This document shows, piece after piece, positions 33,711 to 35,566 of a DNA stretch of 64,000 bases. Each line of letters opens with the position of its first letter. Within the stretch, counting starts at the first letter, position 1. The position numbers were made by a program, and so were the translations under genes. Source of the DNA: Sminthopsis crassicaudata (lineage: Eukaryota); assembly GCF_048593235.1 (NCBI RefSeq), contig NC_133620.1, forward strand, positions 441,345,261-441,409,260. The letters run 5' to 3'. The notes beneath the pieces were generated by a model, which worked only from the letters and a program-made list of their open reading frames with translations, made no database searches and was not told the origin of the DNA.

Positions 33711-33770
33711 TATTAATTGTGGAGATGGTTGGATGGTGAATTTTATGGCCCCTTGGCCTGTTGTTCGGTT

Positions 33771-33887
33771 GTTGGCTTCGGTTGTTCCCCTGGGGAAAGG
33801 TCTTACCCGTCATGGGAAGGGTATGGCATATCATGCACTTCCTGGCTTAGGTTGAACAGTCCTTGGGGAATCTTAACCGTCATTGGC
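33771..33887 (-). promoter_or_regulatory. Constitutive transport element (CTE)-like RNA export signal
   Basis: Twofold repeat ATGACGG(T/G)TAAGA...AACC(T/G)AAGCCA between the env stop and the PPT, like the MPMV CTE. Confidence 0.75.
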
Positions 33888-35566
33888 TAACCAGGCCTTG
33901 TTATTTGGGGGCATCTCTCCATCTCCACATAAGAATCAGGGAGATCGCCTGTTTTGAGGCGATGGTAATGGACCTGAATGGGTTTTGCCAAAATACTGTC
34001 TATTTGAGTTTTAACAAAGGCCATTAGTTTCCGAAAAGCCCAGGGCCCAAAGGACAAAAGTAACAGGAAGCTAAGTAAGGGTCTCAGTAGGGAAAGGAGA
34101 TAGGGAAGGACTCCGTGCAACCCACTCCAAAAGGGGTTTTCAGATAGTTCTTTGTGCCTCCTCACTAGGTCTTCTTGGAGCTTCTTTATCTTGTCTCGCA
34201 CAATTCCAGATTTGTTGGCATAAAAACAGCATCGTTCCTGTAGGGCTAAACAAATCCCACCTTGTTCTGCAGTGAGAAGATCTAAACCTCTTCTGTTTTG
34301 TAATACTACTTCAGCCAAGCTATCAATCTGATCTTGAAGGTCATTTCTAGTACCTGAAGGGGCCTGGACATCATCAATCAACTGGTTGGAAAGTTTAGTG
34401 TAGGAATGAACAGCTACTCCTAGTCCTGCCGAACCTACAGCCCCAGTAATTCTTAGACCTACAAGTAGTGGTACCAGGAGGGCAGCCCTTTTTTAAATTC
34501 CTAGACCTACAAGTAGTGGTACCAGGAGGACAGCCCTTTTTTTACAGCCTCCTATGTAATCAAGGCTGGGGGGGGGGAGGGGACTGGTTCGTCTCCCAGA
34601 ATGATATCAATGTCTGGAAGGATGGTAGCTTGGATGCACTGTCCTGACCAGTTTGTGGGGAGAGCTGTGAAAGTCATGTTTCCTCCACATATGAACACCT
34701 GTCTGGGGGTGGGGCAGAGGTATAGGTAGAAATTGAGGAGCAATCAACAAAGGTCATAAATCCCACATCGATATAAGTATTATTCTGTGGGGATCATTGA
34801 ATGCACAAGGTTCAACTAAATCCTACAGGCTGAACATGGAAAGGGAGGGCAATGGTACAATTACCTTCTGGTAGAGGAATATTTGTGTTATTTGTGGGAA
34901 TAGCAAGGAGGATGGGTGGCCAACAGCCAGCAGTTGCTTGCAAGAGTGGGGTTGGTGGAGTTCAAAGCTCTGAGCGTGGCTTCTAGAATAGTAGAACTCT
35001 GGGTGTCAAGGTCTATACCTCGGGATTTTGGTAGCGCTAGGGGGTGGTAGTCTAGGGGAGAGTACATTTGTCTGATGAATTCCTCAATTTGTTGTTGTAC
35101 TTCTGTACCATGGTACTGTCTGCAATTTCTCCTCCAAAGGAGCCGCTGTAGGTTCTTTGTAGTATGGCTGTGAGGTATATTTTACCATCAGTATAGGTAC
35201 ACTGTTGGACATGGTTGTAACAGAAAGAGTGCATTGCTACAACTGTGTAGCAGTTATGAGGGCAGGGCCCCTGCTGACCATCAGTTGGGGGGATTATGCT
35301 AGGTTTTTTCACACATTGGTAACTAGTATATGAGCCACTGCCCCTGATAAAGTTTGTTTAATTAAATAACCTGTGGCTGAGCCACAGTCAGTGACATGAT
35401 AAGATGAAGGAGTCACCGTGGTGTACCCCCCTCTACACTCACAGGGACCTCCATACAGCTGTTGGAATAACTTGTCCCTATCTGCCAGTGGCCCAAATCT
35501 TCCTTCTGTCAGGGAGTTGAGGATTAGCAATGTCCAGAGCAGGATCATGCAGCTGGTTGTTTCCAT
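33887..35566 (-). pseudogene. env, gamma-type SU/TM, frameshifted
   Basis: Signal peptide and GGPCECRGG; TM with [27 protein letters not shown]; splice acceptor TTCTCCTCTCTTTACAG three bases before the ATG. Confidence 0.92.

Follow-up and report, generated by a model that had tools for sequence, protein, structure and literature searches.

A twofold CTE homologue resembling the host NXF1 intron element in a decayed marsupial type-D endogenous retrovirus

A constitutive transport element (CTE) in an intron of cellular NXF1 was reportedly described by Li in 2006, together with a hypothesised route of capture, and CTEs or TAP-binding elements of the rodent IAP type are said to have been described by Tabernero in 1997 and by Zolotukhin in 2001. 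A related type-D endogenous retrovirus (ERV), TvERV(D), is known from possum. As passages of PMC4330390 set out, NXF1:NXT1 needs no adaptor to bind either lobe of a CTE, and its dimer provides a twofold platform. The hexamer AAGACA is called conserved in each CTE internal loop in parts of PMC4330393 and PMC4174252, and an excerpt of PMC5961109 states that in 3RW6 the TAP-binding bases A13, G14 and A15 are flipped out. One NXF1 CTE gave 3-fold and two gave 33-fold activity, according to a portion of PMC6478720. Capture from the cell and duplication in the virus have been hypothesised (passages of PMC4338338, Wang 2015), and the same passages describe the flanks of cellular CTEs as themselves conserved; cellular origin and viral duplication are so far a hypothesis drawn from this conservation of the host element. 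We found no report in the literature of a CTE in a marsupial ERV, an earlier mention being possible in papers on TvERV(D), TBE, CTE-IAP or 3RW6 or in supplements. The words 'CTE', 'transport' and 'export' do not occur in the main text of PMC11334065, and TAP-binding motifs were sought in bat ERVs only in the relevant part of PMC3621094.

The window (the whole 64-kb stretch of DNA that was analysed) holds on its minus strand a provirus that is, judged by its sequence, a broken type-D betaretrovirus with beta-type gag/pol and a gamma-type env. Its parts are as follows.

40735..41068, minus: 5' LTR, 334 nt
40444..40733, minus: primer binding site (40733-40716), major splice donor (40589) and leader; the MPMV_package model matches at 41.6 bits (E 5.1e-7), short of its gathering score of 54
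35873..40568, minus: pieces of gag (CA), dUTPase, protease, RT, RT thumb and integrase, broken, of betaretroviral type
35569..35570, minus: env splice acceptor, joined in contigs to two donors (below)
33887..35566, minus: env with stops and frameshifts, its TM part open (33887-34492); TLV_coat match, E 5.7e-69
33764..33895, minus: twofold CTE-like element, two units spaced by 69 nt, A-B-A-B; predicted rod with two 6x6 internal loops
33694..33709, minus: polypurine tract (PPT), 3' of the CTE-like element
33657..33693, minus: 3' LTR stub, 37 nt, cut by a duplicated genomic segment
33496..33501, minus: AATAAA in flanking DNA

The env is 67-73% identical to type-D/gamma-type references, and TM and IN are 69-73% and 59-65% identical, respectively, to type-D references (L004/L105, L044/L107 and L106, which we take to be MPMV/SRV). 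The pattern of identities, with CA at 49% to simian references and TM at 70% to an 8,785-nt record (L001, presumably SMRV), fits that of MEBrv 2 as parts of PMC11334065 describe it. A 47-nt tandem duplication lies at the SU/TM junction of env (34448-34542), and seven Histone3 3' stem-loops (19632-23614 and 47958-50545) mark two histone gene clusters that flank the provirus.

The element at 33764-33895 on the minus strand is a homologue of the type-D CTE, twofold in build and set in a decayed provirus. A sequence-only reading of the window had quoted four motifs as the trace of a CTE between the env stop and the PPT. All four are present on the minus strand (33887-33871, 33853-33841, 33814-33801 and 33783-33771), and they lie where it had placed them, between the env stop (33889-33887) and the PPT (33709-33694), which is also the place of the type-D CTE. 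Alignment bore out the twofold organisation: the A-B-A-B units are spaced by 69 nt, against 71-76 nt in L004, an 8,557-nt viral record that was found with the motif which that reading gave for the MPMV/SRV CTE and that, judged by its length, we take to be MPMV. When both strands of the 64 kb were searched for two L004 loop words 20-45 nt apart with up to three mismatches per word, the first motif pair (1 and 1 mismatches) was the sole such pair; the fourth motif (33783-33771) differs from the L004 reference word at 4 positions. Read along the minus strand, the arms are:

33861..33895, minus: outer 5' arm, comprising flank, closing stem, 5' strand of loop A (33884-33879), 4-nt stem and a strand of the central stem
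33838..33860, minus: inner 5' arm, comprising central stem, 4-nt stem, loop-B hexamer AAGCCA (33848-33843) and closing stem; intact here
33820..33837, minus: apical hairpin, poorly conserved (38% identity between subfamilies)
33794..33819, minus: inner 3' arm, comprising closing stem, 3' strand of loop B (33814-33809), 4-nt stem and central stem
33757..33793, minus: outer 3' arm with the loop-A hexamer AAGCCA (33778-33773); damaged in the window copy

The env stop codon falls inside the outer 5' arm, which is the part of the element closest to the host NXF1 intron CTE and has one mismatch in its 4-nt stem in the window copy. The 4-nt stem of the inner 3' arm includes a word resembling a 5' splice site. 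In the outer 3' arm of the window copy we noted a stem mismatch and a short duplication (about 33772-33762) that displaces the 3' closing stem. Both repeat halves are readable, as had been stated, but the outer one is damaged here: the stem next to the outer loop has mismatches in two of its four pairs. The inner loop is intact.

The reading had suggested a search with the Rfam model. Rfam 15 gave no CTE match at the gathering score over the whole window, nor at E up to 10 over 33000-41500. A covariance model built from three simian type-D reference elements only (R1), however, matched 33764-33895 with a score of 29.7 bits and E 1.4e-6, against 12.2 bits for the runner-up among the 23 matches listed in the 64-kb window, and it matched all 13 other copies of the provirus family (family 1) at 31-60 bits. 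R1 found nothing in L001, L002, L003, L109, L111 or the insert-bearing copies L019 and L020. Four rodent-type elements (L087, L089, L090 and L104) scored 38-70 bits on R1, and in a metagenome scan 15 of 19 matches were twofold elements, rodent-like, that lay before a PPT or were cut by the contig end; the rodent IAP label of the metagenome elements is presumed from their LTR starts.

A search of the genome with the env end and UTR returned at least 20 matches at no fewer than 17 distinct loci. Fourteen of 17 loci (window included) carry the CTE-like element, two a SINE-like insert and one a different element. At the two insert-bearing loci (L019 and L020; G000:C5, about 312.17 and 311.99 Mb) a SINE-like repeat of about 125 nt with an A-rich tail has replaced all of the CTE in the stretch from the env end to the PPT; the repeat matches three interspersed places in the window at 81-91%. 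Between the two subfamilies of family 1 (3 and 11 copies) the arms are 80-91% identical and env TM 72%, with lower values in the env tail (62%), the spacer to the PPT (43%) and the apical hairpin (38%). The arms are thus more conserved than env, which we read as purifying selection while the virus replicated. These data bear on whether the likeness might have arisen by chance in a decayed 3' UTR, an idea to which we give next to no credence: the empty Rfam search and a folding z-score at chance level for the window copy would suit it, but the R1 match is unique in the window, the conservation is family-wide and the position is the expected one. The R1 matches in the window and across the family copies rule chance out.

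Two copies of a 2.5-kb genomic segment (31162-33656 and 42894-45398, 98.6% identical) lie on both sides of the provirus, and the first of them truncates its 3' LTR. Dating of the window copy by its LTRs failed because only 37 nt of the 3' LTR remain. The LTR pairs of two other family-1 copies are 83.9% (L054) and 96.3% (L119, partial, 273 nt) identical, and a search for LTR pairs in 4 other family-1 stretches found none. The 5' LTR region of L054 (G000:C4:441139000-441148999) is 97.9% identical to that of the window, its own LTRs are 83.9% identical, and the upstream flanks differ. The pattern points to exchange, by recombination or conversion, between three copies that all lie in this histone-cluster region.

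Four runs (of 22 listed, none recorded as RNA) were compared with the window over 32600-36600. Run X1 gave a 2,094-nt contig (33477-35570) and run X2 three overlapping contigs, all with zero differences from the window; since other family copies are about 90-92% identical here, these contigs are specific to the locus. Their loose ends at the env acceptor map to the leader donor 40589 (X1) and to the gag-internal donor 39266 (X2), both as GT..AG joints. It is from these two joints that we argue for transcription, and not from run records or depth; the contigs cannot show level or ends. Together, contigs and joints place the damaged element in the 3' part of a spliced RNA whose env is broken, and it probably has no function there. 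Contigs from two studies end at 33477 and 33486, downstream of the AATAAA, a weak hint that the provirus borrows a flanking poly(A) site supplied by the duplicated segment. One of the two runs with the spliced provirus carries the label of another organism, although its sequence shows no difference.

Folding predicts that unit 1 pairs with unit 2 to form a rod with two internal loops of opposite polarity. In this rod 93.1% of 509 cells are paired, against 27.5-55.1% in slid controls. Covariation across family copies, which had been proposed as a check, did not add to this: 1 of 37 pairs was compensatory (CG in 8, UA in 5), a count reached in 493 of 500 shuffles, the tested rod having been derived from the same sequences. 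The inner stem has a probability of 0.48-1.0 in 13 of the 13 copies that possess it and the outer stem exceeds 0.5 in 2 of 14; the window copy stands at 0.0 (outer) and about 0.9 (inner), and L004 at 0.91-0.99 for both. Two independent hairpins instead of the rod were rejected (probability at most 0.03 in all copies). Folding energy was likewise set aside as evidence, z being -0.20 and -1.0 for the window copy, which is chance level, versus -2.16 for L004. In the RNAalifold consensus the rod persists, except that the 5' flank pairs across the outer loop. It is the AAGCCA variant that creates this competing helix between 5' flank and outer loop, of which 5 of 7 pairs are kept in 14 of 14 copies.

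The loop hexamer reads AAGCCA at 24 of 27 readable sites in family 1, with AAGACA (in copy L013), AAGGCA and AAACCA once each; one site is deleted. Since the AAGACA that defines the plain type-D CTE is replaced, we file the element as a variant. By our own mapping from the U11/G50 pair in the relevant excerpt of PMC5961109, the changed base corresponds to A15. Passages of PMC4330390 list 20 CTE-contact residues of NXF1, and the host protein, compared by eye, retains 20 of 20, so a change in the protein does not explain the loop variant. The host genome also carries an intronless NXF-family ORF of 655 aa (L047, G000:C7:20407712-20410948), a retrocopied NXF paralog in which comparison by eye shows several CTE-contact residues to be altered, among them the counterparts of human 126, 128 and 279. 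L094, a single-loop element from a different source, has AAGGCA, with G at the loop base that is changed in family 1, which hints that a change there is tolerated.

The variant might instead mark a CTE descendant whose binding of NXF1 is weak or confined to one loop, the C weakening the contact and letting the flank cover the outer loop, so that export was tuned down or switchable. We consider this, the chief alternative as regards function, rather unlikely. The change does sit at a flipped-out contact base, the alternative helix appears in the consensus fold with the conserved pairs given above, and the outer-stem probabilities are low. Against this, both loops have the variant fixed in either subfamily, apparently under selection, nearest-neighbour folding disregards non-canonical loop pairs and protein binding, and L094 departs at the same base too.

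A second ERV family carries the loop strands in another order. In L021/L056 (G000:C3:538509810-538510180) and at least 39 further matches they are nested, A-A-B-B, before the PPT; the count comes from 40 scored of 72 candidates, many of them clustered on C7 (many of L057-L085 at G000:C7:47.8-49.3 Mb). These elements have AAGACA at 57 of 60 sites (30 loci), and R1 scored one half of the element at 21-28 bits in 3 of 3 tested. The nested two-loop fold is a tentative model: of 5 copies that were folded, 1 has it as the minimum free-energy structure and 3 form the outer loop. Family 2 is a class II ERV with LTR pairs 91.6% and 94.8% identical, some copies having no detectable env TM (L114).

In the host NXF1 gene (on G000:C6) the long intron that follows the LRR exon contains a single-loop CTE; counted by exon order, this intron would correspond to human intron 10. 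The two viral units can each be aligned with the host intron CTE at equal loop-to-loop length, unit 1 resembling its 5' half and unit 2 its 3' half. At the 34 positions outside loops and short stems (non-core, a line drawn after the alignment had been seen) identity to the host element is 25-29 of 34 in 13 of 14 family-1 copies (27 in the window copy) and 20 in one insertion-bearing copy. The corresponding counts are 14 for L004 and L044, 13-15 for three rodent-type twofold elements and 6 for two family-2 copies. Family 1 itself agrees with L004 at 10-14 of the 34 non-core positions, against 23-28 of the 29 core positions. The description 'MPMV-like' needs to be divided: the type-D position, the A-B-A-B order, the predicted rod and the R1 match support it, but outside the loops the element is far nearer the host NXF1 intron CTE, and its hexamer differs at a flipped-out base.

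Three metagenome contigs (L094, L095 and L103) bear single-loop CTE-like elements, L103 with an NXF exon upstream and L094 with host-like flanks; these probably represent the NXF1 intron CTE in other animals. Of the 34 non-core positions, 13-14 agree with the host element in L103 and L095. L094 agrees with the host at 24 of them and with family 1 at 17-22, which means that cellular-type elements share conserved flanks, and the 5' loop strand of the viral units has two differences from the host and agrees with L004, L103 and L095. On both grounds the donor need not have been a marsupial. The likeness to the host intron could, in principle, be convergence on a constrained sequence instead of descent, since the conserved flanks of cellular CTEs (passages of PMC4338338) are perhaps under selection and part of the 5' flank carries the env stop codon. 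We regard this as very improbable: simian and rodent-type elements work or persist with only 13-15 of the 34 host matches, and L103 and L095 likewise have few, which argues that the positions are not forced.

Descent from a cellular element, which we prefer to convergence, leaves two histories, independent capture and ancestral retention, that we hold to be about evenly balanced. IN and TM trees (16 rows each, rows covering under 60% of the query left out) resolve neither one capture versus several nor the placement of the family among type-D viruses. A single ancient capture, before MPMV/SRV and family 1 split, has close to an even chance; the marsupial lineage would have kept the cellular sequence under selection and the simian central stem would have been rewritten. 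It would accord with the identity of env TM to simian references (69-73%), with L004, whose unit 1 is equally long and which preserves some of each flank (14 of 34), with viral 5' loop strands that resemble one another and not the host, and with arms at 80-91% across subfamilies where env is at 72%, so that long retention is possible. It fits less well with the low non-core agreement between family 1 and L004, and a variant common to both halves and both subfamilies would be explained most simply if it predated a separate duplication. The close env relatives L001 and L002 moreover have no such element, which was therefore gained or lost within the group. These relatives (L001 and L002/L108, the latter a 10,485-nt record) are type-D viruses with env 69-70% identical. 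They lack the CTE motif and have in common another 3' UTR that looks structured, so within the group one export element appears to have been exchanged for another.

The other history, which we put forward tentatively as somewhat short of an even bet, is that a marsupial type-D retrovirus took the NXF1 intron-10 CTE independently of MPMV, altered a contact base of the loop and then duplicated the unit, the second ERV family having nested it instead. If so, retroviral CTEs would be repeated, datable thefts of one host autoregulatory element, with family 1 as a near-verbatim intermediate.

Whichever history holds, we think it quite probable that the 3' UTR of this marsupial type-D ERV family carries a tandem CTE pair that likely derives from the NXF1 intron-10 CTE and likely recruited NXF1:NXT1 for export of unspliced RNA. 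Homology to the type-D CTE, the signature of selection and the conserved contact residues of the host protein make it likely that this lineage used NXF1 export, as the sequence-only reading had supposed. An intron-retaining NXF1 mRNA may have been copied into a viral genome by template switching, and the captured unit then duplicated, which would fit the two-site NXF1:NXT1 platform. The outer arms would have retained cellular sequence as the inner arms acquired rod-specific pairs, and AAGCCA would be a tolerated loop variant fixed during viral replication. The element would have recruited NXF1:NXT1 directly, and unspliced viral RNA would have been exported as a result. The window copy may now be a fossil that keeps only the inner loop, in a spliced non-coding transcript.

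The finding extends CTE-type export, as predicted here from sequence, to marsupial retroviruses. Family 1 provides viral copies that still resemble the cellular element outside the loops, which makes donor, timing and number of captures testable through NXF1 introns. It also offers natural variants for the NXF1:RNA recognition code, with a contact-base change fixed in both loops, and the nested architecture of family 2 bears on whether a twofold-symmetric NXF1:NXT1 platform is required.

Set against the described systems, family 1 shares with the MPMV/SRV CTE the place between env stop and PPT, the A-B-A-B order, the predicted 6x6 loops with their flanking 4-bp stems and the length of the predicted rod, but has AAGCCA in both halves, another central stem, apical hairpin and most of the flank, and a weaker predicted outer half. 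With the cellular NXF1 intron-10 CTE, here compared in the form of the host's own element, it shares the sequence of flanks and stem as well as the loop-to-loop length; the cellular CTE contains a single loop, with AAGACA, whereas that of family 1 is doubled and proviral, with new pairs in the inner arms and three core differences. Rodent IAP-type CTEs or TAP-binding elements are, like it, twofold and placed before the PPT of endogenous class II elements, but keep AAGACA and show the lower non-core match to the host intron CTE (13-15 of 34 in the 3 tested). MEBrv 2 (Harding 2024, passages of PMC11334065) is, like family 1, a type-D recombinant with beta gag/pol, a gamma-type env and broken ORFs. 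CTE-like elements in ERVs were thus already known, and the doubled, NXF1-like form that the sequences of family 1 point to appears to be new.
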